Shown here: positions 5,048 to 40,000 of the stretch, in pieces
How the letters are laid out: the number at the start of each line of letters is the position of its first letter
Position numbering within the stretch: the first letter of the stretch is position 1
IMG/VR virus record: IMGVR_UViG_3300031992_000079
Span: 1 to 64,000 of that record
Length of the DNA stretch: 64,000 bases
Origin: a virus
Taxonomy: Duplodnaviria; Caudoviricetes
Direction: 5' to 3' (one strand)
The notes under the pieces: generated by a model
The model's input: only the letters and a program-made list of their open reading frames with translations
Told to the model about the DNA's origin: nothing
Databases searched by the model: none
Translations under genes and position numbers: made by a program

Positions 5048-5082
5048 ATTTACCTCTATGTGGCTTAAAAAGTATTACCAAA

Positions 5083-5095
5083 TGGGCGAAGCCCA
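5083..5095 (-). promoter_or_regulatory. Virion-RNAP-type hairpin promoter
   Basis: TGGGC-GAA-GCCCA on the + (template) strand, intergenic, preceded by CCAAA as in the N4 early promoter layout. Confidence 0.7.
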
Positions 5096-6177: not shown

Positions 6178-6233
6178 TTTGTAATCTCCAAAGAAAAAAG
6201 AAAAAAAGAAAGAACTAAAAAATACTACTGAAT

Positions 6234-6244
6234 GGGCGAAGCCC
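6234..6244 (-). promoter_or_regulatory. Virion-RNAP-type hairpin promoter
   Basis: GGGC-GAA-GCCC, intergenic, predicted +1 template C at 6228. Confidence 0.6.
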
Positions 6245-7173: not shown

Positions 7174-8481
7174 TTATTGCAGCAGGTAGGTGCTGTTAGC
7201 AATAGCCTCAACTATCTCAGGGTTTACTGAATCAATTTCAATCTTCAGACCCTTGGCTTCCCAGTTGAGCATCTTAGCAATGTACTCAAGGAAATGACCC
7301 TTATAGAGTTCTACCATTAGATAGTTGAATGCTTTCTGCATCTCATCCACATAGTTAATGTGGCACATGAATTCATCATGCACTGCCACTACATCAAAGT
7401 GATGCTCAGGCAGATGATTAACAGCTTCCTTGATAGCATAGTAGTAGTCATCAGGCAGGACATCACCATGTCTCAGGTGGTCCATAACCCTCAAACTAAC
7501 AATGCCAGTATCCTTCCAGCACTGCATAAGCTCATTAGCCTTAATATGCTCTAAGCCTGCAACACTGTCCAGCTTCTTGCTGTGTTTCAGTGACTCAAAT
7601 TTCAGTGAGTACTTAACAGCATTAGCACATCTGGTGATTAATTCTCTCATCAAATATGCATCTAAGCTGTGGATTACATTGGCACCTAATGCTCTGGTTC
7701 CATCTTCACCCTTCTCAAGGGCACCCTTCTTAGGATAATACACATAGCAGTGCTTCCTAACGCCCTTGGAATTGACCCACTCAATCATCTGAGTCTCTGA
7801 GTGGTCATCATTGGTAATGAAACCATCTTCGTCATACTCCTTTCTGACAAAGAGCTCTTGCACAGGAGTCACCACTTCTGCGTGGTCAGGCAGAGTCCAA
7901 GCATACTCAGTTGCCTTGTCATCCCATGCATCAAGCATAGCCTGCCGGAGCTGGTCGCACTTAGGCAGTAATTCTGCATACATATCACAGAACTTAGCCA
8001 GGTTCTCAGCTCCAACTATTGCACAGACTGCCGCTGTAGACCCATAAAAGCGTGGTATAACCGCCTTCTTCATGGTCTTACGGTCAATCTTGTTGCCAAA
8101 TGCCTTAACGAACATCATATACAGGTCAGAGTTCGTATCATCCAGTAAGCCAAGGGTCTGCATTGCAACCTTGTCTCTGGTAATCATACTCTGAATACTG
8201 ATGCCAGACTGCTTGGTGTCAATCTTGGCTAAATATCCGTTAGGCACACCAGCCTCAGCATCACACACAGCCTTAGAGATATTGGCAATCTCATAGGCTA
8301 CTTCAGCAACATCAGCACCATGCTTCTTGCAGAACTCAATAGCTGCATTAATGTCACTGAGCTTGTGGTGATACCCTTTAGCAATCATAGTTGCGCCAAG
8401 ACTGTATTGTTTCTCTACAGTTGCCTTATCAGCAAAGGCCACAATCTTGCCGAAAAACCTAGTTAAACTGTCCATCGTCAT
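7174..8481 (-). CDS. N4-like RNA polymerase II large subunit (gp16/RNAP2-like)
   Basis: T7-type motif A (DTKQSG), motif B (RKTMKKAVIPRFYGS), ANVIHSLDAY and motif C (VHDEF). Confidence 0.92.
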   Translation of the reverse strand: MTMDSLTRFFGKIVAFADKATVEKQYSLGATMIAKGYHHKLSDINAAIEFCKKHGADVAEVAYEIANISKAVCDAEAGVPNGYLAKIDTKQSGISIQSMITRDKVAMQTLGLLDDTNSDLYMMFVKAFGNKIDRKTMKKAVIPRFYGSTAAVCAIVGAENLAKFCDMYAELLPKCDQLRQAMLDAWDDKATEYAWTLPDHAEVVTPVQELFVRKEYDEDGFITNDDHSETQMIEWVNSKGVRKHCYVYYPKKGALEKGEDGTRALGANVIHSLDAYLMRELITRCANAVKYSLKFESLKHSKKLDSVAGLEHIKANELMQCWKDTGIVSLRVMDHLRHGDVLPDDYYYAIKEAVNHLPEHHFDVVAVHDEFMCHINYVDEMQKAFNYLMVELYKGHFLEYIAKMLNWEAKGLKIEIDSVNPEIVEAIANSTYLLQ

Positions 8482-8492
8482 ACTCCTTGTTG

Positions 8493-9344
8493 TTACAGTT
8501 CAGGTACATCGTTGTCATCACACGCAATTTCAGGCGTGTACTTGATAAGCTCTTTGTTAGCAAGCTCTACACAGCTTCTAATCTGCTTATTGCTAGTGAT
8601 ATTCACACTATCACAGGCTGCATAGCATCTATACCGACAATCCTGCCGATAAGGGATATTGAAGCTATCCATTGCTGCTGCCTTATTTACAGATGGAGCC
8701 AGCTTGCCAGCATAGGCATTGAATGCAGGTAACTTCTCAGGTTCTGCTGGTTCAATCATCACTGGATTATCTCTCCAGGAATCAGCAATCCTAAGTTCTA
8801 CCCGACTAATGTAGTGCATGGCATTCATGTTATGGTCGAGACCATGAGATGCCAACTTAGCCAGGTATTTACCTGTTACCTCTTCATGCAAAATTTCAGT
8901 TGCAGGAGGTGCAGGATAGTCAGTGTCAATTTCAGGACACTCTACCCTAGTCAATAAGTCACCAGTGGTGTTGCTGGTGCCTAACCAAAGCTGCTGATGC
9001 AGAGTGGACAGAATGAAGTTCACCAGTTGCTTCATCCTTGACATCCCATTCTCAGGGAATGCCACATCCAACTCAATCCAACGCAGCATTGGAATTGCGA
9101 ACTGAGGTTTGGTCATGGTACTGCATGCACTCAGTAAACATGCAGTCTTTGCCACAATGGCTTTCTGGTTGTTCTCAGTAAAGGCAGTAAGCTCTTCGAC
9201 CATAGCTTTTGCCTTATCAGAACTGTCTGGCTTAATGAGAGAAGCCATGTAGTTCTGGAGAGCCAGAATGAACCCATTCTCTTCCAAGAACTTCTCGAAC
9301 CAGGTAATTCGAGAATTTGGAAGCATTTCTACAGTAATCTCCAT
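8493..9344 (-). CDS. N4-like RNA polymerase II small subunit (gp15/RNAP1-like)
   Basis: C-terminal YRQDCRYRCYA...VNITSNKQIRSCVELANKE corresponds to the N4 gp15 DxRGRxY motif; lies directly upstream of RNAP2. Confidence 0.8.
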   Translation of the reverse strand: MEITVEMLPNSRITWFEKFLEENGFILALQNYMASLIKPDSSDKAKAMVEELTAFTENNQKAIVAKTACLLSACSTMTKPQFAIPMLRWIELDVAFPENGMSRMKQLVNFILSTLHQQLWLGTSNTTGDLLTRVECPEIDTDYPAPPATEILHEEVTGKYLAKLASHGLDHNMNAMHYISRVELRIADSWRDNPVMIEPAEPEKLPAFNAYAGKLAPSVNKAAAMDSFNIPYRQDCRYRCYAACDSVNITSNKQIRSCVELANKELIKYTPEIACDDNDVPEL

Positions 9345-9591: not shown

Positions 9592-9607
9592 CGTCTACTA
9601 AACCAGA

Positions 9608-9802
9608 TTACTCAATTTCAAGCTTCTGCTTCTTGTCCTTTTTAGGGACTTGAAGCCGAATCTTTCCGTTATTCAGACAACTGACAATGACATCAGGGTG
9701 GTCGCTTTCATCAACCACTTCCTGTGCCTTGTCAATGTCCTTTGCAGTGCCTTTTACTAAGGCAGCTTGCACACGGAGCTTCAGATACTTCCAAGAGCTC
9801 AT
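9608..9802 (-). CDS. Hypothetical protein
   Basis: 4-nt overlap with the upstream ORF; basic C-terminus. Confidence 0.6.
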   Translation of the reverse strand: MSSWKYLKLRVQAALVKGTAKDIDKAQEVVDESDHPDVIVSCLNNGKIRLQVPKKDKKQKLEIE

Positions 9803-10125
9803 TCTACTGACCCCTTGGTAGCCTCAGCCGGACGGTACCGCTCAACGAGCTGTACCCGCTTGAAACCGTTCTCAACAGTCCTTTCCACAACGGTGCCATC
9901 GAGCACCATGTAGAAATGGCCATCATCATCCTGCTTCCACTGGATCTTGTCCAGTAAGCCAACAGGGATTGAAATCTTAGAAGGATTCTGACGCTTGAAC
10001 TGGTATTCAAACGTCTTATGGTCGTCCTTCACAGGATACTGGCCAATTACTTCTACCATAGGCAGAGAGTATTCCTTCTTGTTGAGCTGGTTCTCAACGA
10101 TAGAAAAACTTACAGATTTCATCAT
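9799..10125 (-). CDS. Hypothetical early protein (possible ssDNA-binding RNAP II cofactor)
   Basis: AAGGAG RBS; beta-rich, aromatic; weak resemblance of KISIPVGLLD to N4 gp2. Confidence 0.65.
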   Translation of the reverse strand: MMKSVSFSIVENQLNKKEYSLPMVEVIGQYPVKDDHKTFEYQFKRQNPSKISIPVGLLDKIQWKQDDDGHFYMVLDGTVVERTVENGFKRVQLVERYRPAEATKGSVE

Positions 10126-10161
10126 AATCTCCTTGAAAAATGAATTAGTTTTTCCATGTTA

Positions 10162-10233: not shown

Positions 10234-10271
10234 AAAAAAAAAAAATAAAGGGAGACCAATTAAGGTCTCCC
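10234..10271 (-). terminator. Intrinsic terminator
   Basis: GGGAGACC-aattaa-GGTCTCCC (10250-10271) plus long A-tract. Confidence 0.7.
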
Positions 10272-10280
10272 CCTCCTAGG

Positions 10281-10658
10281 TTACCGCATGTTATAGCGAT
10301 AACCTGTAGGACAATACTTCATTCTATTAATCATTCTAATCCTTTTAGGAACAATAGAATGATATTTTCCATCAACCACAACGTAGTCTAAAGGTGCCCC
10401 TCTTCCGGGGCAATCATTATCAGTCCAGAGGTAGCCTAAGTACATAGGCCCTTTCTTTGACCACTGAACGTAATAGAGTGGCAGGTCAGGCCACTCATAA
10501 GACTCGAGTGATGCAGGAATCACACGCACTGGTTTGTCGGATTTACCAACAAAGTCAAGATAGGACATTCCTGATGCCGAGCAGCGTACTACTTCAAATA
10601 CTTCAGAAAGTCCCTCTTCAACTTCACTACGTGTAGTTCTTCTGTTATAAGCTTTCAT
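10281..10658 (-). CDS. Hypothetical protein
   Basis: AGGAG RBS; preceded by motif copy 3. Confidence 0.65.
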   Translation of the reverse strand: MKAYNRRTTRSEVEEGLSEVFEVVRCSASGMSYLDFVGKSDKPVRVIPASLESYEWPDLPLYYVQWSKKGPMYLGYLWTDNDCPGRGAPLDYVVVDGKYHSIVPKRIRMINRMKYCPTGYRYNMR

Positions 10659-10805: not shown

Positions 10806-11192
10806 TTATATTTTGCTAAATGAGTCCGACTTCTTGTTTATATAATCTAATAAGCGTTTTTCATCAAAACGACCATTTACTTCTCTAATTAAGGGTACTC
10901 CTAATTCTTCTGAAATCTTAATATCTGAGACATATACTTCAAAACCAAGGAGTTCTAATTGCCTAATTAAAGAGTCATACTTATCTTTCTTTGAAATCTT
11001 ACAGAATATCCATATAGTAGATTCTTTAAGGAATGGATATGTATATACTTCTAAGCTAAAGTTCTTACAATCAATATGTACTCCCTTACTACCAGCATGG
11101 TATCTATTAATAACCTCATACTTATTGGCTTTAATTACATCAACAATAAAGTCAGTAAGCTTATCTAAGTCTTCTGTTAAAGCTTTATCCAT
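10806..11192 (-). CDS. Early array paralog, subfamily A
   Basis: Likely start MDKALT; ends ...YDSLIRQLELLGFEV. Confidence 0.75.
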   Translation of the reverse strand: MDKALTEDLDKLTDFIVDVIKANKYEVINRYHAGSKGVHIDCKNFSLEVYTYPFLKESTIWIFCKISKKDKYDSLIRQLELLGFEVYVSDIKISEELGVPLIREVNGRFDEKRLLDYINKKSDSFSKI

Positions 11193-11193
11193 C

Positions 11194-11532
11194 TTAATCT
11201 TCCTCAAAATCAAATAAATCAGGATTATTCTTAATTACTGGTATTTGATACATTTCAGCTTCTTCATTACTTAAGGTATATGTATAAAAACCAACTAATT
11301 TGAACTGTTTAAGTAATTGGTCATACTCATCTTTGTTTGAATTACTATAAATCAACCAGACATTTATTTTCTGAAGAAAGGTATAGGCATATACATCTAA
11401 CTCAAAATCCTTACAGTTAATATGTACTCCTTTCTGGCTAGTGTACTTATAATCAATCACCTCAAATCCATTGGTTTTAACTATATCAATAACAAAGCTA
11501 GTAAGCTTCTCTATGTCTTCTAGTAAATTCAT
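11194..11532 (-). CDS. Early array paralog, subfamily A
   Basis: Aligns end to end with 10806 (KLTxF..D..K.N..EVI...KGVHI.CK.F.L.VY.Y.FL); ends YDQLLKQFKLVGF. Confidence 0.75.
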   Translation of the reverse strand: MNLLEDIEKLTSFVIDIVKTNGFEVIDYKYTSQKGVHINCKDFELDVYAYTFLQKINVWLIYSNSNKDEYDQLLKQFKLVGFYTYTLSNEEAEMYQIPVIKNNPDLFDFEED

Positions 11533-11870
11533 TTTAACTCACCTGATGTGCGAAGCTTTATATGTTCTATAACTATACCAACTTCAAATCCAGCAAGTCT
11601 TAATTGGTCAGCTAATGAATCAAAATTATCTATCTCTGAAGTATTTCTGTTTATCCAGATATGGGGTGGGGTATCAGCAAGATGGGGGTATATGTATATC
11701 TCCATATTAAAAGAGCCACAGTTAAGAGTTCTGCTTATATAGCTTCTGGTAAAGGTATTAAGTACCCCAAATCCATTTGCTTCAGCTATGTTAGTAGCAA
11801 TCTGAGAAAGTCTCTTCAATTCCTTTACTACTGTTGTTCTCTGTTTTATTGATACATCATTTGTACTCAT
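11529..11870 (-). CDS. Early array paralog, subfamily A
   Basis: Likely start MSTNDV; ANGF, EIYIY, HIWI, FDSLADQLRLAGFEV. Confidence 0.75.
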   Translation of the reverse strand: MSTNDVSIKQRTTVVKELKRLSQIATNIAEANGFGVLNTFTRSYISRTLNCGSFNMEIYIYPHLADTPPHIWINRNTSEIDNFDSLADQLRLAGFEVGIVIEHIKLRTSGELK

Positions 11871-11880
11871 CTGTAGTCTC

Positions 11881-12243
11881 CTAATATATTCTTCTCTTAT
11901 ACCCAATCCAGTTAGGATTATTTGACTTATAGCCTAATAGGAGTAATTGCTTTACTACTTCTGTAGGTAATTTATCCTGCCGCAAATCAACTACAATTAC
12001 ACAGTCACCTGTATCATGCATATATAATCTACTTCCACCCATATGCTCTTTTTCATAACTAAACAGATAAACAGTTATAGAGTCATATGGCATAAAGCAG
12101 GTATTCATAACTCTTTCTACTATAAAATTTATATCTTCCTTATGAATTTGTTTAGAACCTGTTATTCCAAAGTTTTCTAATAGCATTTTCTGTAGTTCTA
12201 TTTCTTTTAATGCTTCATTTGCATTCTCAATACCATCAGTCAT
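11881..12243 (-). CDS. Early array paralog, subfamily B
   Basis: LPTEVVKQLLLLGY...WIGY. Confidence 0.75.
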   Translation of the reverse strand: MTDGIENANEALKEIELQKMLLENFGITGSKQIHKEDINFIVERVMNTCFMPYDSITVYLFSYEKEHMGGSRLYMHDTGDCVIVVDLRQDKLPTEVVKQLLLLGYKSNNPNWIGYKRRIY

Positions 12244-12592
12244 TTATTGTTACCTCATAATTAAGAAAAGGACCATTAGATACTTCTTCATATCCCAGTA
12301 GCAATAACTGGTTTACTACTTCCTCAGGTATAAATTTCCTAATCAATGTAGAAGCAATTAATAGAGTATCCTTGCTTATGCTATAAATCCTGCAACTGCC
12401 TATAGCATTATTGGTGTTGTAATAAAGAGTATAGAAGCTTATTAAATTATCACTATAAACAGCTCGTGCTTTATCCAGTTGTTCAAAACTCTTAATGATA
12501 CGAAATCCAATACCCTTTAATAATTCTGTTAGTATCTTTAACTCATCTAATGCTTTATCTACAGCAGTCCTATTAAATACTATATGAGTCAT
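12236..12592 (-). CDS. Early array paralog, subfamily B
   Basis: LLKGIGF, IGSCRIY, IPEEVVNQLLLLGYE. Confidence 0.75.
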   Translation of the reverse strand: MTHIVFNRTAVDKALDELKILTELLKGIGFRIIKSFEQLDKARAVYSDNLISFYTLYYNTNNAIGSCRIYSISKDTLLIASTLIRKFIPEEVVNQLLLLGYEEVSNGPFLNYEVTIND

Positions 12593-12924
12593 TTTATTTC
12601 TCTCTCATAATCAAGCCATTTACCATCATCATTCTCATATCCTAGAAGTAGTAACTGATTTATCATTTCTTCAGGTATGACTCCTGCATTTAATGTAGAA
12701 GTGAATAATAAGATGTTATTCATTTTGCGGTAGACATAGCAGTTACCAACTGTCATTCTGTCTAATTTGATGTTATAGCAGTCTACAACATGATACATTG
12801 CCTCCATTGCTCTATCTAAGCAATCTTCAATAGTTCTAGTAGTATAGATATTAAAACCTATACCTTGTAATACTGTTCTTAAATACTCTGCTTCTTCCTG
12901 TGCTTTATTTGCTAGATTCTTCAT
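12589..12924 (-). CDS. Early array paralog, subfamily B
   Basis: VLQGIGF, VGNCYVY, IPEEMINQLLLLGYE...WLDYE. Confidence 0.75.
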   Translation of the reverse strand: MKNLANKAQEEAEYLRTVLQGIGFNIYTTRTIEDCLDRAMEAMYHVVDCYNIKLDRMTVGNCYVYRKMNNILLFTSTLNAGVIPEEMINQLLLLGYENDDGKWLDYEREIK

Positions 12925-13249
12925 TTATTGCTACCTCATATTCAAGCCAGTTATTAGCTTCAACCTCAAAACCAAATAACAATAATTCAGTTATTATCTT
13001 TTCAGGTATAGTAGATGGATTTAATATAATATTCACTTTTGCAGGTCTGCTAGATGGAACAAGAAGAACACATTCACCAATTACATCTTTATCTATACAG
13101 ACATCAAAAACATGTGTTAGAAAGTAACGTGATGCTCCATCTATAGTAATTTTAATGTCATTAGCTTCGTTAATAAAAGAGAAACCAATACCACCTAATA
13201 ATTGTTTTAGGAAATTGAGCTCATCCTGCAGTTTCTGCACTATAATCAT
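12905..13249 (-). CDS. Early array paralog, subfamily B
   Basis: LLGGIGF, IGECVL, IPEKIITELLLFGFE...WLEYE. Confidence 0.75.
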   Translation of the reverse strand: MIIVQKLQDELNFLKQLLGGIGFSFINEANDIKITIDGASRYFLTHVFDVCIDKDVIGECVLLVPSSRPAKVNIILNPSTIPEKIITELLLFGFEVEANNWLEYEVAINEESSK

Positions 13250-13252
13250 ATG

Positions 13253-13552
13253 CTATTTCTTCATTAAGGTAATTAAACCAGTATTCCATACAGTGTTTTC
13301 TTCTGGTTCTATTGTTGTATCAATTATCAATGCAATCATCTTAGCTACTTCTTCTGAAACGTATCTAGGATTATAAGACCATACTCCTCTGCTTCTACCA
13401 GCAGTAACTAGTCTTATTCCATTAAACCTGCCTATTGCATAAGGATCTACAGCAACAAAGTAATGATTAACTTCTACAACTTCTGGATAGTAACTAAGAT
13501 GTATATTCTCTCTAAGTACTTTAAGTACTGCATCTAACATTTCCTGGTTCAT
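13253..13552 (-). CDS. Early array small protein (divergent)
   Basis: Same size and helix-strands-helix pattern; coupled to its neighbours. Confidence 0.65.
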   Translation of the reverse strand: MNQEMLDAVLKVLRENIHLSYYPEVVEVNHYFVAVDPYAIGRFNGIRLVTAGRSRGVWSYNPRYVSEEVAKMIALIIDTTIEPEENTVWNTGLITLMKK

Positions 13553-13908
13553 TCTAATAATTTCCTATGCTTGCTTAATCTGCTTAATCCCCATATATAA
13601 ACATATTCAACTTTAGCTTGAGGTACTATTTGCTGTATCTCATCTATCATACGAGGTGCTACAGCTGAATTTACTTTTAGAAAAACATAAAATACTTCTA
13701 GCTCATTTGTAATACCTATAGTCATTATTCTGGTTCTTGCTTTTCCTGCATCAAGCAGTAAATCTATTGTTATAAAGAATTTTGTTTTTGTAGAACGATA
13801 AGGATCATTACTTAACATTATTCCTTCATTGTTGAAATACTTATTAATCACATTTGTTATAGGCAATATATAAACAGAATACAGAGGTTCATCTAATGGA
13901 TAAATCAT
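13549..13908 (-). CDS. Early array small protein (divergent, subfamily C-like end)
   Basis: Ends MIDEIQQIVPQAKV, resembling ALKLAYPDAKV. Confidence 0.65.
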   Translation of the reverse strand: MIYPLDEPLYSVYILPITNVINKYFNNEGIMLSNDPYRSTKTKFFITIDLLLDAGKARTRIMTIGITNELEVFYVFLKVNSAVAPRMIDEIQQIVPQAKVEYVYIWGLSRLSKHRKLLE

Positions 13909-13924
13909 ATAAACTCCAGAGAAT

Positions 13925-13945
13925 AAAAAAGGTGCCTAAGCACCT
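13925..13945 (-). terminator. Intrinsic terminator within the array
   Basis: GGTGC-ctaa-GCACC with A6 tract. Confidence 0.6.
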
Positions 13946-13955
13946 ATTTCACCAA

Positions 13956-13970
13956 ACCAGCGAAGCTGGT
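13956..13970 (-). promoter_or_regulatory. Virion-RNAP-type hairpin promoter
   Basis: ACCAGC-GAA-GCTGGT preceded by CCAA; same geometry as the 5083 copy. Confidence 0.65.
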
Positions 13971-14311
13971 CAGAAGTATTCTCTTCCTATTGGAGAGATA
14001 TTCATAAGCCCTACCCAGAAGCCCATAAGCCTTAACTGCTTTATTACATTGTTACATTTATTCTTTCTGCGTCTGTCCTTAAGGTCTATCCAGATATGTG
14101 ATGCTTCATCAGAGTATCTGTTTACATCAACTCCTATACCATCACATGTTATTGTCCTGCCATTGATACAAGTTTCATAATTAAAACGCACAGTAACCTT
14201 ATTGGCTTTAAGAACTTGTTCAATAACTTCAGCTAATGCTTTTGTGGCATCTGCTACCTGCTGGTTTGTTTCAGTAGCACTAAACATCTTATCAGGTATA
14301 TAACTAGTCAT
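13970..14311 (-). CDS. Early array paralog, subfamily A
   Basis: Likely start MTSYIP; VLKANKV, HIWID, NNVIKQLRLMGFWV. Confidence 0.75.
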   Translation of the reverse strand: MTSYIPDKMFSATETNQQVADATKALAEVIEQVLKANKVTVRFNYETCINGRTITCDGIGVDVNRYSDEASHIWIDLKDRRRKNKCNNVIKQLRLMGFWVGLMNISPIGREYF

Positions 14312-14615
14312 ATGCTTCTTCCTCACCTCGTATGCAGAAACCAAGAAGTTTAGCCATATCTAAAGCATTAGGATGTAAATACTTCCTAAGTACCTTGAAA
14401 GTATATCCTGAGATACATACTCTTACAGTAGGATGTTCATAGTCTGAATAATCCCTGTCAAAGTAAGCTATGTATTGGAATATAGGGTCACTCCTATTAG
14501 TCCATACAATAAAGCCAGACATGCATCTGTAATTAGTCTCAATCCTTACTTTATCTGGCTCTAGAAATAATCCTTTAAGCATAGTCTGAATCTTTTCCCA
14601 TTCTGCTTTTTTCAT
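14304..14615 (-). CDS. Early array small protein
   Basis: Ends ALDMAKLLGFCI. Confidence 0.7.
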   Translation of the reverse strand: MKKAEWEKIQTMLKGLFLEPDKVRIETNYRCMSGFIVWTNRSDPIFQYIAYFDRDYSDYEHPTVRVCISGYTFKVLRKYLHPNALDMAKLLGFCIRGEEEAYD

Positions 14616-14857
14616 CTTATATTCACCTTTTTATCTGACACTAATCCAAATGCTCTTATTAAAGCTTCTCTATCAATATCATAATTAAACTTCTTAAGCC
14701 TGTTAATGAATACCTCTATTGAATCCTTTTTCTCTACTGCTACTGTATCAAGATAAAAATCTCCTGTAGCAGAATAAATGGTCATAGTTTCATTCTCAAA
14801 TCCCTTCCTTACAGGACAATCTGTAAAACCAGATAAAACACTCTCTATGGTGTCCAT
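14612..14857 (-). CDS. Early array small protein
   Basis: Coupled ORF; ends EALIRAFGL. Confidence 0.65.
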   Translation of the reverse strand: MDTIESVLSGFTDCPVRKGFENETMTIYSATGDFYLDTVAVEKKDSIEVFINRLKKFNYDIDREALIRAFGLVSDKKVNIR

Positions 14858-15129
14858 GGTACTCCTTGTATCTCTACATCTGGCAGTGCCAGTGTAACTG
14901 CTTTAATAAACTCTGTATTGCCCTTAAATCCAGGGATAAGGACATAGAGACCATCATAGTATTTAATAACATTTGCTATTTCAGTATTGTGCTTATGTAT
15001 AGTATAACTATGTGTATATCCACCTTTAGACAAGGTTATAGTAGTTTTCTCTTTAAATATACATTCAGCTATCTTATTTATCTTTCTAAGTATATCTACT
15101 GTATCTTTATTTTCTAAGTACTTAAACAT
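14845..15129 (-). CDS. Early array paralog, subfamily C
   Basis: Ends EFIKAVTLALPDVEI. Confidence 0.7.
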   Translation of the reverse strand: MFKYLENKDTVDILRKINKIAECIFKEKTTITLSKGGYTHSYTIHKHNTEIANVIKYYDGLYVLIPGFKGNTEFIKAVTLALPDVEIQGVPWTP

Positions 15130-15382
15130 GTTCTATCGTCCATACTTTTGCATCTGGGTAAGCTAATTTAAGAGCACTTGCTAATTGCATATCTTTTTCA
15201 AAATTGCTAATAGTAACAATAAGTGAGTCATCCTCTAATTCATCTACTGTAATATAAATATCAGGGTGTGTATCATCATGGAATCTGTATCCACTATGAA
15301 GCCGTTCGTATTTAGGTGAGAGATCTAAACCAGTTATCTGGTTTATTATCTTAGTTATATTCTCAATGTTGTTTATGCACAT
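15122..15382 (-). CDS. Early array paralog, subfamily C
   Basis: ITKIINQ.TGL, DIYITVDE, KDMQL..ALKL.YP; about 60% identical to 15410 by hand alignment. Confidence 0.8.
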   Translation of the reverse strand: MCINNIENITKIINQITGLDLSPKYERLHSGYRFHDDTHPDIYITVDELEDDSLIVTISNFEKDMQLASALKLAYPDAKVWTIEHV

Positions 15383-15409
15383 ATAACTATTACCTCTTTT
15401 TCTAAATAT

Positions 15410-15664
15410 TTAAGCATATCTTGTCATCCATATTCTTGCATTAGGGTAAACCAGTTTAAGTGCCTTTACTAATTGCATATCTTTATCAAACTTACTGATA
15501 GTAAAAGAAAGCTCATTATCTTTTATTTCATCTACTGTAATGTATATGTCAAAATGCTCTTCATCATAAAACCTGTATCTGCTATCCCATTTACACTTAG
15601 GTTTAAGATTCAAGCCAGTTACCTGGTTTATTATCTTGGTAATACTTTCAATATCTATACACAT
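15410..15664 (-). CDS. Early array paralog, subfamily C
   Basis: Recent duplicate of 15122..15382. Confidence 0.8.
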   Translation of the reverse strand: MCIDIESITKIINQVTGLNLKPKCKWDSRYRFYDEEHFDIYITVDEIKDNELSFTISKFDKDMQLVKALKLVYPNARIWMTRYA

Positions 15665-15927
15665 ATAATCACCATCATATCTGGGAACATAAGAAGCAAA
15701 CTACGAAGAAACTGCTTATTCTTATAATAATTCATATTCCTTATCTCAAGCTCTTGACAAGTCTTCTTGTTTACAAAGCTCATGATTGCTTCACCATTTA
15801 CAAAGTAATGAAACTCTTCCCACTTCTCATATCCTAACTCCATGTTCTGTCTTACAGTTCTGCATCTTAGCTTAAAGTAACCTTCTATAAGCTTCTTAAC
15901 TAGTTTCACATCATAAGGTAGTCTCAT
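15655..15927 (-). CDS. Early array paralog, subfamily C
   Basis: Ends KQFLRSLLLMFPDMMV. Confidence 0.7.
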   Translation of the reverse strand: MRLPYDVKLVKKLIEGYFKLRCRTVRQNMELGYEKWEEFHYFVNGEAIMSFVNKKTCQELEIRNMNYYKNKQFLRSLLLMFPDMMVIICV

Positions 15928-15967
15928 ACTTAATCATCCTCAGGAAGGGCACTGTAGGTACCCTAAA

Positions 15968-16303
15968 TTAAAACAAATCACGTACCCATGTAGGGATGTA
16001 GCTCTCTGTTGGTTTTGGTTCAACTACAGAGCTTTTAAGAGTACTTGCTGATAGTTTGCATCCCATAAGCATTAGTGCATCTATATCATGACAATCTTCT
16101 GGATAGGCATCTGTCTTCCATACTGATATTGTATCTCCTTTGTAAGATGACCAGTAGAAGACACATAGAGTACATACACCACTATCCTTTGGGTAAGCCA
16201 GAGTACCTGCTGTTGTTCTGTTATGTTCTAATGTATAACCTCTGCTCATAAGGTACTTAAGACACTTAGCATAAAGTTGTTTGTAGTCCATGTAATACTC
16301 CAA
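15968..16303 (-). CDS. First early gene; array-like small protein
   Basis: Directly downstream of the 16324 hairpin; ends DIDALMLMGCKL. Confidence 0.7.
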   Translation of the reverse strand: MEYYMDYKQLYAKCLKYLMSRGYTLEHNRTTAGTLAYPKDSGVCTLCVFYWSSYKGDTISVWKTDAYPEDCHDIDALMLMGCKLSASTLKSSVVEPKPTESYIPTWVRDLF

Positions 16304-16323
16304 TTCTTAATAAAATCACAGGA

Positions 16324-16336
16324 GGGGCGAAGCCCC
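16324..16336 (-). promoter_or_regulatory. Virion-RNAP-type hairpin promoter heading the early array
   Basis: GGGGC-GAA-GCCCC; predicted +1 template C at 16319. Confidence 0.7.
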
Positions 16337-16348
16337 CTAAAAAAAGTA

Positions 16349-16377
16349 TTGACATTCAGTAAATTTAACTATATCCT
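16349..16377 (+). promoter_or_regulatory. Sigma70-type promoter
   Basis: TTGACA-N17-TATCCT; no plus-strand gene follows. Confidence 0.55.
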
Positions 16378-16437
16378 GCGGATAGCAGGGGTGGTTGGTT
16401 GGTTGGGGGAAACCTTTAATAGTATAAGAATACTATA

Positions 16438-16454
16438 AACCCCCGAAGGGGGTT
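16438..16454 (-). promoter_or_regulatory. C-GAA-G hairpin (vRNAP-type) near the inferred genome end
   Basis: AACCCCC-GAA-GGGGGTT, 7-bp stem. Confidence 0.55.
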
Positions 16455-16502: not shown

Positions 16503-16940
16503 CTAGTTAAGATCCTTTATAGAGCACTGTTTGATAAGGGCGTTATGCTTAAGTACTAGGGAGTCACATTCTCTTGCAAGATCCAGAGATCTCTTAATCT
16601 GCTCTCGTAGTTGGGTGTCTCTGTAACAAGTAAGATGGGATTTATCTCTACCTGAGGACACTCCCTTACTGGCACTGCTGCTGTGCATGCACTTAACAGT
16701 GTTAGCAAGCTTAGCATTACTAAGATCTTCATTTCTCTTCTTAAGCTCCTCTATCTGCTTGATGTATTCCTCTATAGCAGCATTGGAGGCTTCTCTGAGT
16801 TTACTCTCCTCTTTACGCAGTTCTGTGTAGTAACTGGTACGATACTCTGTTAAGCCAGAGTTGTAGCCAGTATTGTAAAGCCAGAGAGAGTAGAATACAA
16901 GTACTGTTGAGATACCTGCTATGCTGTAGATTAGGTTCAT
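16503..16940 (-). CDS. Inner-membrane spanin (Rz-like)
   Basis: N-terminal TM segment and coiled coil; follows the endolysin; carries an embedded lipoprotein gene. Confidence 0.85.
   Translation of the reverse strand: MNLIYSIAGISTVLVFYSLWLYNTGYNSGLTEYRTSYYTELRKEESKLREASNAAIEEYIKQIEELKKRNEDLSNAKLANTVKCMHSSSASKGVSSGRDKSHLTCYRDTQLREQIKRSLDLARECDSLVLKHNALIKQCSIKDLN
16556..16732 (-). CDS. Outer-membrane spanin (Rz1-like lipoprotein, 58 aa), embedded in Rz
   Basis: Read from the sequence: MKILVMLSLLTLLSACTAAVPVRECPQVEINP...; LSAC lipobox; absent from the supplied ORF track. Confidence 0.85.
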   Translation of the reverse strand: MKILVMLSLLTLLSACTAAVPVRECPQVEINPILLVTETPNYESRLRDLWILQENVTP

Positions 16941-17359
16941 GATACAAACAAGTCTCTCTCTGCATCTCTGCGTTTCTCTAAACCTTTAGAGGGTTTATGA
17001 TTAGCATAGATCCACTTGTTAAACTGCTCTGCTGCTGCTGCATACCAGTTCTTTCTAAGATACTTAAACATAGTAGATGTTCTGAATGCTTGAATACCTA
17101 TATTGAACATAAAGCAAATCAAGGCATCATACTGATTCTGAGAAAGGGCGAAGCCATAAGAATTAAGAGCATCTTCAAACTTAGATAAGTCCTGCTTAAG
17201 TAACTCCTCTGCTTTATCCTGGGTTATCTTATCTCCCTTATTTACTCCTTCAGTATGACCATATCCAATAGTCCATACTCCAGCAGGACATAAGTAAGCA
17301 GTAAGCTTACAGCCTTCAAATTGTTTAATAAGGTTAATACCCTTCTCACTTATATTCAT
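16937..17359 (-). CDS. Endolysin, GH24 lysozyme
   Basis: FEG...Y.CPAGVWTIGYGHT, QNQYDAL..F.FNIG, GLEKRRDAE. Confidence 0.93.
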   Translation of the reverse strand: MNISEKGINLIKQFEGCKLTAYLCPAGVWTIGYGHTEGVNKGDKITQDKAEELLKQDLSKFEDALNSYGFALSQNQYDALICFMFNIGIQAFRTSTMFKYLRKNWYAAAAEQFNKWIYANHKPSKGLEKRRDAERDLFVS

Positions 17360-17667
17360 TTGTTCAATATCTCCTGTAAGGAATATATCTTGTTAAGGTC
17401 ATTCTCTTGGATATGCACTTTACCTGCTAATTGCTCTTTAGAATCTTCATCTTTAAGAGTATAGATATTATGGTATCCCTCTACTAGGAAGAACTTGTAA
17501 TAGCCATTAGCATTAGTTTTATAGGCACTCCTTAAGCCTTTAACACTACCTTTGGAATCAGTAGCTTCAGCAATAATAGTATAAGACTTTAAGGGATTTT
17601 TCATAGGGTCTAATAAGTAACCCTGTAACTGTGCTGTAATAGGATTCTTAGATGTATATGTGGTCAT
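17356..17667 (-). CDS. Stand-alone tail-fibre N-terminal (lambda Stf-N-like) domain protein
   Basis: LQGYLLDP..NP....TI...A...TNANGYY.F.L.EG....AGKV.I...SLQEIL mirrors Stf N-terminal ISGVLKDG.GKP...GRYSM...AGTITV...TLNDFL. Confidence 0.55.
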   Translation of the reverse strand: MTTYTSKNPITAQLQGYLLDPMKNPLKSYTIIAEATDSKGSVKGLRSAYKTNANGYYKFFLVEGYHNIYTLKDEDSKEQLAGKVHIQENDLNKIYSLQEILNK

Positions 17668-17734
17668 TCTGGTTTCCTTGTTTTACTGGTTTAGTCCGCT
17701 ATAATAAGATTAAATCAGTTATGGCAAGGAATTT

Positions 17735-17992
17735 ATGGGTAAGAGAAAATACAACATTGAAACAGAGAGTTATCAATGTAATGAAGTTAATATCTTCTCA
17801 GAGTATGATAATGAAGAGGATTTAAGAAGAGCTTACAGAGCATTTGTTAAGGAGAATGGAACCAGTACCTTCATTAACAGACACTTTACTCTGAGGATGA
17901 ATGAACTGGATATGATTTACAATGCTAATGCAAGCTCTAAAGAACTACTGGCTAAAAGAAGAGATGAAATAGGTTATACACACCTTAGTTAG
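17735..17992 (+). CDS. Lone plus-strand hypothetical protein
   Basis: AAGGA RBS and an upstream TATAAT at about 17700. Confidence 0.5.
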   Translation: MGKRKYNIETESYQCNEVNIFSEYDNEEDLRRAYRAFVKENGTSTFINRHFTLRMNELDMIYNANASSKELLAKRRDEIGYTHLS

Positions 17993-18419
17993 TAGAACCA
18001 AATCCTCCATCACCTCTGCCTGTAACAGACAGTTCATTAGCTATCTCAATATCTACTTTCTTGAAAGGTACAATAAGTACCTGAAAGGCTCTTTCACCTC
18101 TCTTAAATCTAATAGTATCTCCCCAGGAGTTCTCTCCCTGTTCATCAATTACAATGTGAGCAATCCACTCACCTCTGTAATCAGCATCAATAACTCCTAC
18201 AGTATTCCTAAGAGCAATACCTCTCATACCAGCAGAAGAACGAGGCAGCAACAAGGCTACATGACCCTCTGGCACTTCAGCAGCAAAGCCAAGATTGATT
18301 ACTGTATCTCTGCCTACTACCAGTTCTACATCCTCCTGAAAGTAAATATCTAAGCCACCAGAGAGGTCTCTCTTATACTCTGGCTTAATGAAGTTATCTA
18401 CTAAAGGCAAAATCTTCAT
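17985..18419 (-). CDS. dut: Trimeric dUTPase
   Basis: SGGLD, LLPRSS, GVIDADYRGE, RAFQ and RGDGGFGST motifs. Confidence 0.95.
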   Translation of the reverse strand: MKILPLVDNFIKPEYKRDLSGGLDIYFQEDVELVVGRDTVINLGFAAEVPEGHVALLLPRSSAGMRGIALRNTVGVIDADYRGEWIAHIVIDEQGENSWGDTIRFKRGERAFQVLIVPFKKVDIEIANELSVTGRGDGGFGSTN

Positions 18420-18440
18420 AAAAAATTTCCTTAAAAATAG

Positions 18441-34015: not shown

Positions 34016-37000
34016 ATGGCATCTTACATTCCCAATCCTTATCTTAGCAGAGAACAGCAGCAGGAAATTGCTAACATTCAGAGTCAATATACTGATTCTG
34101 ACTATAAGAATGCCTTAATCTCCTTAATGAATAATGATGCTCTTACTCCTCAGGAAATGGAACAGAGGAGAATGGAAGAGATTGCTCAGTCAAATGCAAG
34201 ACTTCAGCAATCAAGAGAGAGCAGAGAAAGCATCTACATGAGAGCCAGTGCTAAGGTGAGAGAACTCATCAATAGACCTGAAATCATGACTCCCAATGAG
34301 ATAGCTGAGGTTGTTACTAGTGACCCAGACTTATCTGTTGCTTATGCTACTGATAATGAGAAATATGGTTTAGTAAACCAGATACTTCAGGAAAGAAGCA
34401 GACTTGCTGACCCTGCAAGAGCATTAGATGGTAAGACTATTTCAGATGAAGAAGATTCCTTCTTAGGTAGTCTCTGGACTGGTGTTAAACATACCTTTGG
34501 CTCTATGGGTCCTAATGCCAGAAAGGCAAAGTCTATCCTTGACCTCAATGAACTGCCTCTTAAAGACCTTGATAAGATTAAGCGTAAGCAAGAAGTAGCT
34601 AATGATATTCAAGCCAAGATGGTGGAAGAGTCTGATAGGATGACTTCTCCTGATATGGCTCAAAGAGCAGAAGCTCTTAGTAAGTACAAGTACTTCCAGA
34701 ATGAGTTAAACAAGTTACAGCTTACTCCTGAAGAGCAAAGACTCTGGGATACCTATGGTGAGCAATACACTAATCTGCATGGTGATTTAGACCTTGCCAA
34801 TGCTCAGCTTTCTGATTTGAATAATACTGTCACTTCTGAAGAAGCTGAAGCATTAATGGCTGATAGACAAAGAGACCGTAACTTCACAGCTCTTGGTCAA
34901 TCAGCTAACTATGATAACTGGGATTATGTACAAGCAACTATTAGTGACAAGATTAAACACTTCTCTCCTAGTAAGATGCTTGGAGAGATTGCTGCTACTG
35001 CCCTTCCTTTCTTTATTCCTGTAGTTGGTCCTGTTCTTGGTACTATTGGTTTCACTGCCAGAGCAGCAGCTTTTAGCTCTGATGCTTTAGAGCACTTTGC
35101 TAATAACTTAGAAGCCTACATGAATGAGCATGGTCAGATACCTGATGACAGAGCTATTGGTATCATGGCTGCTGCTATTGGTTCTGCTGTAGCAGACTTC
35201 TATGGTTCTAAACTCTTTGTAGGTGGTTTAGGTAAAGCAGGTATAGTAAAGAGCATAGAAAATGATTTCAAGAATGCTCTTGTTAATGTAAAGCCTTTAA
35301 TTGGTAAAGTAAGCAATAACTCTATGGCTCACGCTATAGCAGCTTCTATGGCTACTCAGCTTTCTAAGAAGACTGTTAAGAGTGGTGTAGGAGAAGAGCT
35401 TTCTACTGCTGAAAGAGCCATTAATAAGATTATATCTGGTAAGGCAGAAGCAATATCTTCTGCTGGTGTCAGATATGCTAAGAAAGCCAATAAACTTGCC
35501 CATGAATACACAGGTACAGGAATACAAGACATAGCATCTGCTGGTGTTAAGCTTGCAGGTGAAAACATTGGTTCTACTCTATTTGACCAATTAGCACTTG
35601 ATAAGTTTGATGCTAAAGCTCTTGTTGATGCTGGTGTATCTGGCTTAATTGGTGGTGCTATGTTCCATGGTGTTGCTTCACCTGGAATGGCATTAGCAAG
35701 AATGGGTAAGCAACAGGTTCAGCAGCGTATTGGACCTAAGTTTAAGATTGATTCTGAAAAGGATTGGCAAGCTACTCTTGATAATATGAATCTTCCTGAG
35801 AATAGGAAGTACAAAGAACAGTACATTGAAACTTATCAATCTGGCTTAGAGAAGATGGAAGGTGAGATTGATGAGACCATTACCAAGGCTGTTGAGCAAG
35901 CAACTGACAGATATGGTGAAGCAATAGGGAAGAATGCTGCTGGTGAGTGGATATTCAATGAAAAGAAAGCTGCTAACCTTACAGAGAAAACCAAGAAGCA
36001 AGCTGTTAAGGATGTTAAGAAGCTTAATAAGTTAGAAGCTAATGCTGAAGAAGCTAAACAGGTAATTGCTTCCAGGAATGAAGCTTTAACTAAGTTACAG
36101 CAAGCTACAGTTAAAGAAGATTATGAGGAAACCAAGGACTTAGATTCTGAATTAACTGAAGAAGAAGTAGAAGCCAGAGAAGAAGCTTTCCATAAATATG
36201 CTAGTGATGAGGATAAGGTTAAAGCACTGGTAGAAAGTGAAAAGATTACTGAGGAACAAGCTAAGCATATTATTAATCCTTCTACTTCTAAGATTGCTGT
36301 AGATAGTGAATTAAAGCCAGCATTAGAGAAGTATGGTGAAACTACTGCTGAACTGTATGAAGACCTTGAAGGCAATAAGGAAGTAATACAGGCTCTTAAT
36401 GAAGCAGATAAGACTAAGTTTGATACCGCTATTGATGACTTGGTTTCTAAGAAAACCATCTCTAAAGAAAGAGCAGATGTACTTAAAAGCAGATTCACTA
36501 AAGAAGAATTTGAAAGAACTCAGAGAACAGATAACGAAGTAAATGAGGAAGGTAAGAATAGAGCAGGTGAAACAGTACCTTTTAGCAAGTATAACAAACC
36601 CTCACAGAAAGATATTCAGGATGCCTTAAAAGTAGATGATACTACTAAGGACTTTGTTAAAGAGAATCCCTTAAATGCAGGTAAAGACTTATCTCTTGCA
36701 GATTTGTCTGATGCTGCTGTCACTCCTTCAATCCGTAAATCATTCTTAAATGATAAGTCTCTTGAAGCCAACAGACTTGATTTGTTTAATGCTATTAAAG
36801 CCAATAGCAAACTTTCAGAGACAGAGATAAATAACTTCCTTAATCCTTTTGTTAAGGAGGTTAAGGATGCCTTTAAGAATGCCAATGAAGTAAACAAAGC
36901 ACTTAAAGACCAAAGAGCTTTTGCCACTGAAGCAGAGGCTAAAGCCTTTATTGATAAAATCAATAAGAAGGCAGGATTAGAAGCTTCTAGTCTTGTACCT

Positions 37001-40000
37001 AAGAAGATAGCAGGAAGATACATTGTTGAAGACATTATTGAGAACATTGATAAGAAAGAACTCAATAAAGCCAAGACAATAGAAGAAGCTCTTAAATGGT
37101 GGGATAGTCATAAGGCTGAGTATGCAAGAGTGCCTTATAAAGCAGGTACTATTGCTGATGTTATTGAAAAGAAGATTGTAAACAAGCTTAGAAAAGGTGT
37201 TAAGGATGAAAAGAAAGATGATGCCTTAAAGACCTTTAAGAATGCTGTAGAATCTGTTGAGAATGCTCTTGGTGCTGGTTTACAGACTGTTAGCAAAGAG
37301 GGTGTTAAGCATGCCTATACCAAAGCTAAAGAAGCCAAAGAATTCATGGAGGAATTTAAGAAACTCCAGAAGGAAATGGAGGAGACTAACAAAGTAAGCA
37401 AAGATATCGCTAAGAAACCTATTGAAGATATTGTTGCTGATATTGAAATAGGATTCGAGTACTTCTTTAGAGACTTAGGTATAACTGATATTTCTAAGAT
37501 TACAGAAACAGACCTTGTTGATTTCTTAAAGAATCATAAGCTCACTAGAAAAGATGAGATTAGGTATATTGAGTATCACAAGCTTATTACCAATTCTCAT
37601 ATAGATAGGAAAGCAGAGATTCTTGGAAGACTTGAAATTGTCAGGAATCTTATTGAATTAGCTAAAGCCAATGATGCTTTTGATGATACTCCAGATTTAC
37701 CTGTAGCAAGACTGTTCTATGGTAGAGGAAGAACAGGTGTTACCTGGGATACTACTACTGACAGAATGAATGCAGACAAGAGATACAATGCTCTCTATGC
37801 AAAGTTCTCTACCATGTATGAGATGGAATACATCAGTAGTGCAGAAATACCTACTGGTGCTATGTCTGCTACTGCTACTAAAGCACTTGAAGATGATGAA
37901 CTTAATAGAAAAGGTATCAATGAAGTAGTTCTTGAAAGAGAACTAATGAACTTTGACCAAACCAGAATAGACCAGATGGCTGAACTCTTCATGCTTATGA
38001 AGAATACTTCATTTGCAGGTAAAGCTGGTTTTGGTGACATGCTTCATAGAGCATTGGATGAATACAATGAGAGAGATGCTTCTAAGAAGATAAACAGTAC
38101 TATTATAGATAATAACGACCTTAGTTCTCTCAAGACTATCAACGCTAGAGCAAGAACTGATTTCTTTATTGCTATTGCAAGTACCAATACCTTTAAGAAC
38201 TTCTTTGGTTTAGTAAACCAGGGTACTAAGCATAAGACTCTGGAAGATTTCATTAAGCATTCTCCTGAGTACTCTCTTCCTGGTCATGCTAGTGATGTTT
38301 TCACTGATAAAACCATTACCAAATTAGGATATTACAATACTGCTACTCATAAGTATGAGTCTTATGATGCTCCTACATCTGGTACTTCTGCCTATGATAA
38401 TCTTGTAGCCTTAGATAACTACTTTAAGCTTAATGGTGCTCTCTATAATCATGTCTGGGATGATATAGCTCTTTCTAAGAGTAATCCTGCTAATACCTTA
38501 ATGGGTATCATTAGAGATAGATATGAATTAACTCATGCCAGTGCTAAGAAGTATCTTGGTTTTGGTAAGGGAGATGCAGTAGACAGAATCAAATCAAACA
38601 TGGAGGATTTACTTAAGAACCTCAATGTAAAAAAGATTGCTGATGCTACTGTCTTCTTTAATAACTTGTACCTAATCCAGAAGCAATGGATTGCTCGTGG
38701 TAAGGTATTAGTTTCTAATCCTGGTACTAGTGACCCCTTTAGTCAATTCAAAGATAGGCTTAGTAGCCTTTATACAGGTAAAGAAAATTTTAATGATGTC
38801 TTTGATAGAGTCTACAATCCTAGAGGTAAAGACAGAAGTACTGTAAGACAGATTCAGTTCCCCTTAACTGCTGCTATTATCAAGAATATAGCAGCTCAGT
38901 ACATGGAAAATGCTATTGAGCAAAATCCTAAGTTTACTCCTACAGATTTTGAGACTTTCTATAACCCTGCGAAGCAGGTTTATGACACTACTACTTTCTT
39001 AAAGAATACTACCTATGAAAGGTTTAGTGGCTTTAAGGAAATATCTACTGCTTTACAGACTGAGACTGCAAGACAAGAGTTAGCAGATGTAATCAGGTAT
39101 AACCTTGTAAGAGGCAAGATTAAGTTACAAGACATTCTGGACTTCAATGCTACTACTGAAGATGAAGGTGGTGTTAAGGCAGAATGGAGACTTAATGATG
39201 AGGGTGTAAATGCTCTTAAAGAGATATTCTCTGATAAAGATAAAGCTGGTTATAACGCAGATGTTGATTTAGAACATCAATTTAAAGATATTCCTAATCT
39301 TGAGAAGTTCTTTGCTGCTCTAATCAATGCTAAGAAACTGCATAATGTAGTTACCTTTAGAAAGAGTGGTACTAAAGAGACTCTTGATTCTACAGGTACT
39401 TATGAGCATATCGAGAATGATTTACTGAGATATGGTAAGAAAGACTTTGAAATCATTCCTAATGCAGAGAATATGTCTGTTCTGGCTTCTGATAATTTCA
39501 TTAAATATAGGGGTCAATTCAATACCAGCTACGCTGATAAAGCCAGATTAGATGAATTCTTACAGGAAGTATTAAAGCTCTCTGAATCTGCTGGTAAGTT
39601 CTCTAAGACTGCTACTAACTTAGCAGACCAAGTATTCATGCGTTCCTATAAGGGAATCCAAGCCTATAACAGGGAAGTAGTACATACTATTGCAGGTGTG
39701 TTCCTTTCTCATTTACCTAGACTCTCTTCTGGTCAGTCTGAGAAATGGGTAGATAAGCAAGTTACTACTGAATACTTTACTCAGAAAGCAGCAAATGTAT
39801 TTAAGAGGTCTAACTTCATCAGTAAGAATAATCTGGGAGAAGACTTAGGTTCTCAGATGATTACTGCTTTAGGTATTCGCTCAAGAGGTGATTTTGCTAC
39901 TCATGATGCTATACCTAGACTTGCTGCTGGCTTAGCTGGTAGAGCATTAGATATGGCTCAGGATAAGGGAATTATTAAGATTCTCTACTTCAACAGAAAG

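Follow-up and report, generated by a model that had tools for sequence, protein, structure and literature searches.

Two expanded families of small proteins in the candidate immediate-early region of a distant N4-like phage of the sheep and goat gut

Why would a phage place 17 small genes in a row at the position from which an N4-like virus is expected to begin transcription, and are these genes copies of one another? The question is raised by a window (i.e., the whole stretch of DNA analysed here, 64,000 nucleotides (nt) long) that comprises bases 1-64000 of the 76,268-base virus record IMGVR_UViG_3300031992_000079, and that carries an array of 17 consecutive minus-strand open reading frames (ORFs) of 81-135 amino acids (aa) at 10806-16303. 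A first-pass annotation had correctly picked out these successive small ORFs, and had interpreted them as a gene accordion of 17 paralogs built on one scaffold and lying directly behind the first early promoter. The reading that we favour, and to which we assign a probability of about 55%, is that the array is a pair of immediate-early operons with two expanded families of small proteins, that these families are shuffled between strains, and that their products are host-directed binders.

The 17 ORFs are real genes, as judged by their ribosome sites, their abutting or overlapping arrangement, their order, conserved in 12 or more of the relatives (here 17 metagenome contigs, L002-L018, reached via protein clusters), and their ratios of nonsynonymous to synonymous substitution rates (dN/dS). 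As first described, they mostly overlap or abut (intergenic gaps of -20 to +61 nt) within an AT-rich block, with a GC content of 0.31-0.35 against 0.37-0.45 in the flanks. Ribosome sites of the GGAG/GAGG type stand before most of the genes, coupled starts are present, and the isoelectric points of the products range from 4.4 to 9.2. Some starts were revised, in each case in agreement with gene calls in the relatives: ORF 15968 probably starts with the ATG at 16291 (107 aa) instead of the TTG at 16303, ORF 10806 probably with the ATG at 11192, and ORFs 11529 and 13970 are probably 113 aa each. Between orthologue pairs, dN/dS was 0.19-0.69 for the single-copy array genes and 0.31-0.55 for the A and B subtypes (defined below), compared with 0.08-0.20 for the flanking lysis genes; the array proteins are thus under purifying selection which is weaker than that on the lysis genes. 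With the revised starts, and in the direction of the minus strand, the genes are as follows.

15968-16291, minus strand: g1, 107 aa; one copy in every relative, with no detectable relative in the array
15655-15927, minus strand: g2, 90 aa, ending L-L-M-F-P-D; weak link to g5 and C
15410-15664, minus strand: C1, 84 aa; extra C copy, present in the window genome only
15122-15382, minus strand: C2, 86 aa; modelled as helix, four strands, helix, strand
14845-15129, minus strand: g5, 94 aa, ending L-A-L-P-D; weak link to C (P 0.0007-0.003)
14612-14857, minus strand: g6, 81 aa; best conserved gene of the array (median identity of 86% between relatives), unplaced
14304-14615, minus strand: g7, 103 aa, ending K-L-L-G-F; match to the A/B profile limited to the C-terminal helix
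13970-14311, minus strand: A1, 113 aa; proximal A copy, found in all relatives
13549-13908, minus strand: g9, 119 aa; unplaced, with the highest dN/dS of the single-copy genes (0.69)
13253-13552, minus strand: g10, 99 aa; unplaced
12905-13249, minus strand: B1, 114 aa, subtype gamma1
12589-12924, minus strand: B2, 111 aa, subtype delta; missing in the closest relative (L017) and in one goat-gut contig
12236-12592, minus strand: B3, 118 aa, subtype epsilon
11881-12243, minus strand: B4, 120 aa, subtype zeta; shared by every one of the ten genomes in the subtype map
11529-11870, minus strand: A2, 113 aa; distal A copy
11194-11532, minus strand: A3, 112 aa; modelled as helix, four strands, helix, strand and a less confident tail
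10806-11192, minus strand: A4, 128 aa; third distal A copy, variable among genomes

Comparison of the 17 sequences with each other (BLASTP against a database of the array) returned 13 paralog pairs at E < 1e-3. Two subfamilies named by the first-pass annotation, A (10806, 11194, 11529 and 13970) and B (11881, 12236, 12589 and 12905), were clear at 24-42% identity (E-values from 1e-4 to 6e-33), and the pair 15122/15410 was 63% identical, near the original estimate of about 60%. Of the four members proposed for a subfamily C, it was these two that BLAST joined, and 14845 and 15655 were attached only through weak profile matches (P 0.003-0.01) and a collinear alignment.

Profiles of the families, taken as hidden Markov models (HMMs) from alignments built from the relatives, were then compared with hhalign. 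This check had been suggested at the outset and its outcome was mixed. The A and B profiles matched with a probability of 84% (P 7.5e-6) over 84 collinear columns, which makes a convincing case at the level of sequence that the eight A and B genes form one superfamily. The genes 15410, 15122, 14845 and 15655 would make up a second, weakly linked group (C against g5, P 0.003; g2 against g5, P 0.009). Beyond these, g7 matched the A profile at P 0.017, and the remaining pairs gave nothing, leaving g1, g6, g9 and g10 without any link. Merged profiles connected A/B with the C group at P 0.012 and with g7 at P 0.005, in both cases at the C-terminal helix, and scores between array profiles slightly exceeded those between array and control profiles (Mann-Whitney p 0.002). 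A family of 17 paralogs, as originally claimed, is therefore not established, given that five ORFs (13253, 13549, 14304, 14612 and 15968) are not significantly related to any of the others. A C-terminal helix-cap motif, loosened from those of the subfamilies, was found in 15 of the 17 proteins of the array, compared with 1 of the 55 products of other ORFs in the window, a count that is descriptive only, as the motifs were loosened after the sequences had been seen; the strict A/B or C motifs had no match in the five singletons.

We modelled one protein of each group with AlphaFold, namely A3 (11194) with the A+B alignment and C2 (15122) with the C+g5+g2 alignment. The A3 model (predicted local distance difference test, pLDDT, 84.5; predicted template modelling score, pTM, 0.77) has helix 3-20, strands 25-32, 35-40, 43-50 and 55-62, helix 67-79 and strand 83-88, and the C2 model (pLDDT 84, pTM 0.75) has helix 6-17, strands 22-26, 31-35, 43-48 and 54-59, helix 64-74 and strand 79-83. 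The order of elements is identical in the two models and agrees with the shared layout of helix, strands and helix that had been proposed from the sequences. Specifically, the predicted domain consists of an N-terminal helix, a four-stranded antiparallel meander, a second helix with a Gly/Pro cap and a fifth strand, with both helices on one face of the sheet, and the B proteins would adopt the fold of A by virtue of the A-B homology. At least 12 of the 17 genes would accordingly be members of two families that are predicted to fold alike.

When both models were compared exhaustively with 48,161 PDB chains, 18 of the top 50 neighbours were common to A3 and C2 and were aligned to the same residues. 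For example, the two models matched residues 22-115 and 22-113 of 2iii_A, and 1vr7_A, 5v8w_A, 2arh_A and 5wi2_B were matched by both; 13 of the top 50 BFVD matches were also held in common. None of these neighbours is significant, in that Foldseek found nothing at E up to 0.001 in either PDB or BFVD. A single scaffold for all 17 proteins is not supported: one A and one C member share a predicted fold, the link from A/B to C consists of that fold and the weak motif match at P 0.012, and five genes are unplaced. A propensity-based prediction of secondary structure for the five unmodelled families was dropped, since it agreed with AlphaFold at 52-54%. The ESM Atlas held no usable match, and its model of B2 was poor (pTM 0.25).

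The A, B and C-group families are restricted to one phage clade. Among 5.8 billion clustered proteins, the profiles of A, B and the C group had 19, 29 and 14 matches, respectively, all on contigs of the clade of the window's phage, and the A+B profile, run with HMMER over 1.84 billion representatives, gave 25 matches, of which 23 were genuine members. P0065 and P0066, considered as fused forms, were rejected because their scores were summed over matches to Ig/cadherin-like or other repeats; no fused A/B form was found among the 1.84 billion representatives. Searches of the 17 proteins against PHROGs, Pfam and NCBIfam gave only scattered matches far under the cut-offs, no Pfam family recurred over 98 A/B members, and seven family profiles found nothing in the PDB under E 0.08. 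Among candidate families looked for by name, Tad2 (DUF2829, PF11195) had no match at E up to 1 in the 17 proteins and 98 A/B members, and the right-end family of N4 gp70/gp71 (PHROGs 7213 and 9160) had none at E up to 0.1. For SUKH and Imm families the best match was to Imm53 (E 0.16, in 2 of 98 A/B members), which is insignificant, and structural scores lay within background.

How the array changes between genomes can be followed in the relatives. Nine genes or families (g1, g2, C, g5, g6, g7, A1, g9 and g10) occur once each and in fixed order in every genome, with C doubled in the window only. Beyond these first nine, the genomes carry 4-6 B and 2-3 distal A copies (1-2 for C), so that copy number does differ among relatives, a comparison that the first-pass annotation had called for. 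A maximum-likelihood tree of 42 B proteins resolved eight supported subtypes on long internal branches, each with orthologues in 2-9 of the nine genomes in the tree. Ten genomes displayed nine combinations of B subtypes, always in the same order. The closest relative, L017 (92% nucleotide identity), differs from the window by three genes: it is without C1 and B-delta and has a B-alpha that the window does not have. Goat-gut contigs provided junctions at which single genes are absent, joining 10829 to 11193 (A4), 12592 to 12924 (B2) and 15393 to 15676 (C1), and also carried 324 additional nt between g10 and B1.

The paralogous copies are 25-63% identical, and this divergence, together with the presence of B-subtype orthologues across genomes, excludes a recent accordion of the kind first envisaged. 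The sole extra copy of the window, C1, is 79% identical to the lone C gene of L006 and L014 and 59% identical to its neighbour C2 (which itself has 88% identity with the one C gene of L017). This suggests that C1 came in by recombination or survives from an old duplication, and is not a recent copy. The pattern is one of birth-and-death with gain and loss of whole-gene cassettes. Evolution of the array is fast yet constrained: between genomes with lysis genes of 94-97% identity, the array proteins reach 55-86%, and the window's g9 allele is merely 43-45% identical to g9 of the relatives.

What would place the array at the start of infection is its genomic setting. The window belongs to a distant N4-like (Schitoviridae-type) phage of the sheep and goat gut, the block being present in sequencing runs from several metagenome studies of sheep and goat gut. 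A giant ORF of 4858 aa (34016-48592) is the virion RNA polymerase (vRNAP; phrog_2206, E 1.9e-105), an RNAPII-type large subunit lies at 7174-8481 (match to phrog_2051), and a 283-aa gene without a family match (8493-9344) occupies the slot expected for the RNAPII small subunit. Portal, capsid, endolysin and an Rz-like gene (16503-16940) are also present. The portal is 40-47% identical to those of cultured Schitoviridae and RNAPII at most 29% identical to its best matches; a megablast search of the block against 50,697 phage records gave no match, and an IMG/VR search with the RNAPII protein found no relative. The array lies upstream of the split RNAPII genes and is co-oriented with them, an order kept in the relatives, which have the gene order portal, dUTPase, lysis genes, array and RNAPII in common.

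In coliphage N4, the injected vRNAP uses three hairpin promoters to transcribe the early region that encodes gp1-gp14 (Lenneman and Rothman-Denes 2015, PMC4496689). The determinants recognised by this polymerase are a template hairpin, a GC-rich heptamer centred at -11, and the bases -11A/G, -10G, -9C, -8G and +1C (PMC4496689). We found the heptamer GCGAAGC 14 times in the window against 0.7 expected, with 13 of the 14 on the plus strand, which is the template for the array. At three plus-strand sites, centred at 16327, 13960 and 11550, it forms part of the arrangement TCAC-N7-GCGAAGC, which in N4 numbering supplies +1C, -8G, -9C, -10G and -11A with the heptamer centred at -11. The sequence GCGAAGC is a very stable DNA mini-hairpin. 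The sites, and a terminator-like element close to one of them, are listed here.

1474, 5086, 6236, 7163, 9410, 11550, 13960, 16327, 17148, 21634, 30446, 38969 and 61216, plus strand, and 33866, minus strand: GCGAAGC sites
16316-16336, plus strand (template): P1, candidate vRNAP promoter; TCAC-N7-GCGAAGC, 5-bp stem, 3-nt loop
13949-13970, plus strand: P2, second candidate vRNAP promoter; TCAC-N7-GCGAAGC, 6-bp stem
13930-13945, minus strand: hairpin and T6 resembling an intrinsic terminator; conserved in relatives (z -4.6)
11539-11556, plus strand: doubtful third promoter-like site; TCAC-N7-GCGAAGC, no stem beyond a 2-bp core (z -0.3)

P1 and P2 have every published base determinant of the N4 vRNAP at the right spacing, are predicted to fold into stems of 5 and 6 bp with 3-nt loops (P2, z -3.8), and are conserved in every relative that covers the respective site. 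P1 lies in a 200-nt gap after the lysis genes, with a predicted start 25 nt upstream of the ATG at 16291, and P2 lies between A1 and g9. The third site was seen in no genome but the window and L005, where its start motif is altered, and is doubtful as a promoter. Sites resembling sigma-70 promoters were not enriched (21 found, 33 expected). The N4-type hairpin at 16316-16336 agrees with the original statement that the block follows the first early promoter, and the location of the array between the candidate hairpins and the RNAPII genes agrees with its assignment to the position that vRNAP transcribes in N4; by this analogy, the block would be transcribed first, by the injected vRNAP. The terminator-like hairpin next to P2 begins 4 nt past the predicted start, and the pair is kept in all relatives.

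The reading that we favour joins these observations as follows. The injected vRNAP would start at P1 and P2 and transcribe 17 small genes, at least 12 of which would represent two expanded families (eight A/B genes; C, g5 and g2, four genes). The copies would have arisen by old tandem duplications and been held by purifying but relaxed selection, with gain and loss of whole genes shuffling them between strains. Judging from this context, their products would be free-standing binding proteins, synthesised in the opening minutes of infection and each directed at a different host target or target variant, in the service of host takeover or counter-defence. The invariant single-copy genes g1, g6, g7, g9 and g10 may include the cofactors that an N4-type RNAPII needs.

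Several points weigh against this reading. P1 and P2 are promoters by sequence only, and the GCGAAGC hairpin may have other roles, because most of its 14 copies are without the right start base: a C at the N4 '+1' spacing is found at 5 of the 14 sites only, and some of the rest lie inside genes. No family or fold match in the sequence and structure libraries searched provides a functional lead, and the five ORFs without a significant relative have no place in either family. Finally, the divergence of the array is in part mosaicism, its synonymous divergence is raised too, and RNAPII downstream differs more (26-49% between allele groups).

One competing explanation, less probable in our judgement but a serious contender, is that the array is a row of early ORFans without kinship, among which two or three families happened to be duplicated locally, and that the shared layout and the Gly/Pro caps are generic to small alpha/beta proteins, with no single scaffold behind them. 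The profile comparisons lend themselves to it, as the A-B score is the only convincing one, A/B against the C group reaches P 0.012 and five families give nothing, and so do the motifs, which match the five singletons post hoc, once loosened, and miss them when strict. It has more difficulty with the two separately modelled proteins that share their order of elements and align to the same residues in the 18 PDB chains that they have in common, with the excess of array-array over array-control profile scores (Mann-Whitney p 0.002), and with the loosened cap motif, which was set post hoc and separates the array (15/17) from other ORFs (1/55). The opposite extreme is that all 17 genes descend from one ancestral domain of helix, four strands, helix and strand, radiated in place into a clade-specific repertoire of binders, in which the variable zone of B and distal A genes would be a swappable panel of inhibitors against defence or target variants of rumen hosts; this we consider unlikely.

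The array might instead serve the phage itself, its products being cofactors or specificity factors of RNAPII, or regulators of the switch from early to middle transcription, with paralogs that track RNAPII alleles. In N4 the early products gp1 and gp2 are RNAPII cofactors (PMC4496689), and PHROGs revealed no homologue of either here, so that analogues should exist among the array genes; the RNAPII subunits moreover fall into three very divergent allele groups. However, 8-12 paralogs go far beyond what N4 needs, and natural genomes can do without entire B and A genes. Between the window and L016, RNAPII is 93-96% identical, yet g9 is 45% and g7 76% identical and the B content is different; the alleles and cassettes of the array hence do not track RNAPII type, which argues against tight co-evolution of the two. 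We regard such an internal role as improbable for the array as a whole. A true gene accordion, i.e., a recent tandem amplification driven by selection and now diverging in the style of poxvirus K3L, would account for tandem, co-oriented, abutting genes of varying copy number, but we give it next to no credence: the paralogs are too far apart (25-63% identity), the tree contradicts it with B subtypes that are supported clades with orthologues across genomes, and the only genome-specific extra copy (15410) is nearer to alleles of other phages than to its neighbour.

Known systems offer partial parallels to the array in the form proposed here, of two old, strain-shuffled families. Like N4 (gp1-gp14), the phage has a string of small ORFs on one strand from the first hairpin promoter to the RNAPII genes, promoter hairpins with the same recognised bases, and genes for a vRNAP and a split RNAPII. 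By contrast, no N4 early protein resembles the array families, N4 has one weak paralog pair (gp9/gp12) where 8-12 of 17 genes are paralogous in the window, and the window's vRNAP gene is on the strand of the structural genes. Early paralog pairs detectable by BLAST numbered 1 in N4, 3 in Pylas, 1 in Ab09, 0 in CB3 and 1 in JA-1; the Klebsiella phage Pylas is similar to the window in having a small paralog family in its early region. Vibrio phage K479 was considered as a match in layout and rejected, being arranged differently.

Farther afield, the multigene families (MGF) 110, 360 and 505 of African swine fever virus and the host-range families of poxviruses are birth-and-death families with a demonstrated role in host interaction. 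The array resembles them in its tandem small paralogs near a genome end, its strain-variable content and its old, diverged copies with orthologues across strains, its host-interaction role being a proposed one. It resembles the K3L accordion in that copy number shifts between close genomes (three genes between the window and L017) and differs from it in having no near-identical recent copies. Polyimmunity loci of polymorphic-toxin systems assemble SUKH, SuFu-like and Imm families in tandem arrays. Their tandem, diverged, small alpha+beta proteins, which are binders, recall those of the window, where, unlike in these loci, no significant Pfam match to Imm or SUKH is present.

The flanks of the array hold further features.

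16437-16454, minus strand: GC hairpin with a 5-bp stem, TTC loop and T-rich tail, read from the sequence 3' of the Rz-like gene
10281-10658, minus strand: x125, 125 aa, basic (pI 9.1), at the end of the second early unit
10247-10274, minus strand: strong hairpin resembling an intrinsic terminator, 11 pairs and a T run

The first hairpin is likely to be where the lysis transcription unit ends, ahead of the early block; a consensus terminator scan did not list it. The last likely ends the second early unit. For x125 we found no counterpart in the related contigs compared, no family match and no relation to the array families. The dUTPase gene and the lysis cassette (a 103-aa gene, endolysin and the Rz-like gene), at 16937-18420, lie on the early-gene strand directly upstream of P1. 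The physical end of the genome is probably between about 16340 and 18450, in which case the dUTPase and lysis genes would enter the cell last. A sharp mosaic boundary lies close to the first early promoter. The RNAPII subunits (7174-9344) of the window, L002, L013, L014 and L016 form three allele groups of 26-49% mutual identity, and the lysis genes there are 86-96% identical.

The motif AAAAA(G/A)TA(T/C)T adjoins three GCGAAGC hairpins (5060-5092, 6210-6242 and 16334-16352), twice on the 5' side and once on the 3' side. Read on the minus strand, it is an AT-rich ATACTTTTT element that might be a middle (RNAPII) promoter. A sheep-gut metatranscriptome contained a 559-nt contig identical to window positions 9598-10156, spanning two small genes upstream of RNAPII (9608-10125). 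Its depth was 75, compared with 2-3 for other pieces of the region, and adapter sequence flanks it, so that it may represent an abundant RNA or an artefact. Pieces identical to the block are also held by a sheep-gut RNA library, which says nothing on transcription or timing.

The early genes of N4-like phages are known, to date, as rows of orphans that bear no relation to one another. In the window, one or two multiplied families would make up most of the early region, and their content varies among strains that are nearly identical in their late genes. If the P1 and P2 hairpins act as proposed, they extend the recognition code of N4 to a very distant relative, whose RNAPII does not exceed 29% identity to its counterparts in cultured phages. 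The A/B family, with 23 representatives in 1.84 billion clusters, is a small, well-modelled domain suited to structure and partner screens. Should its members and those of the C group be host-directed binders, the fixed order and the presence or absence of subtypes would amount to a natural experiment on cassette versus host; and if all 17 genes did radiate from a single domain, the array would correspond, in a phage, to polyimmunity loci and to the multigene families of large viruses, with products made from the very first transcripts.

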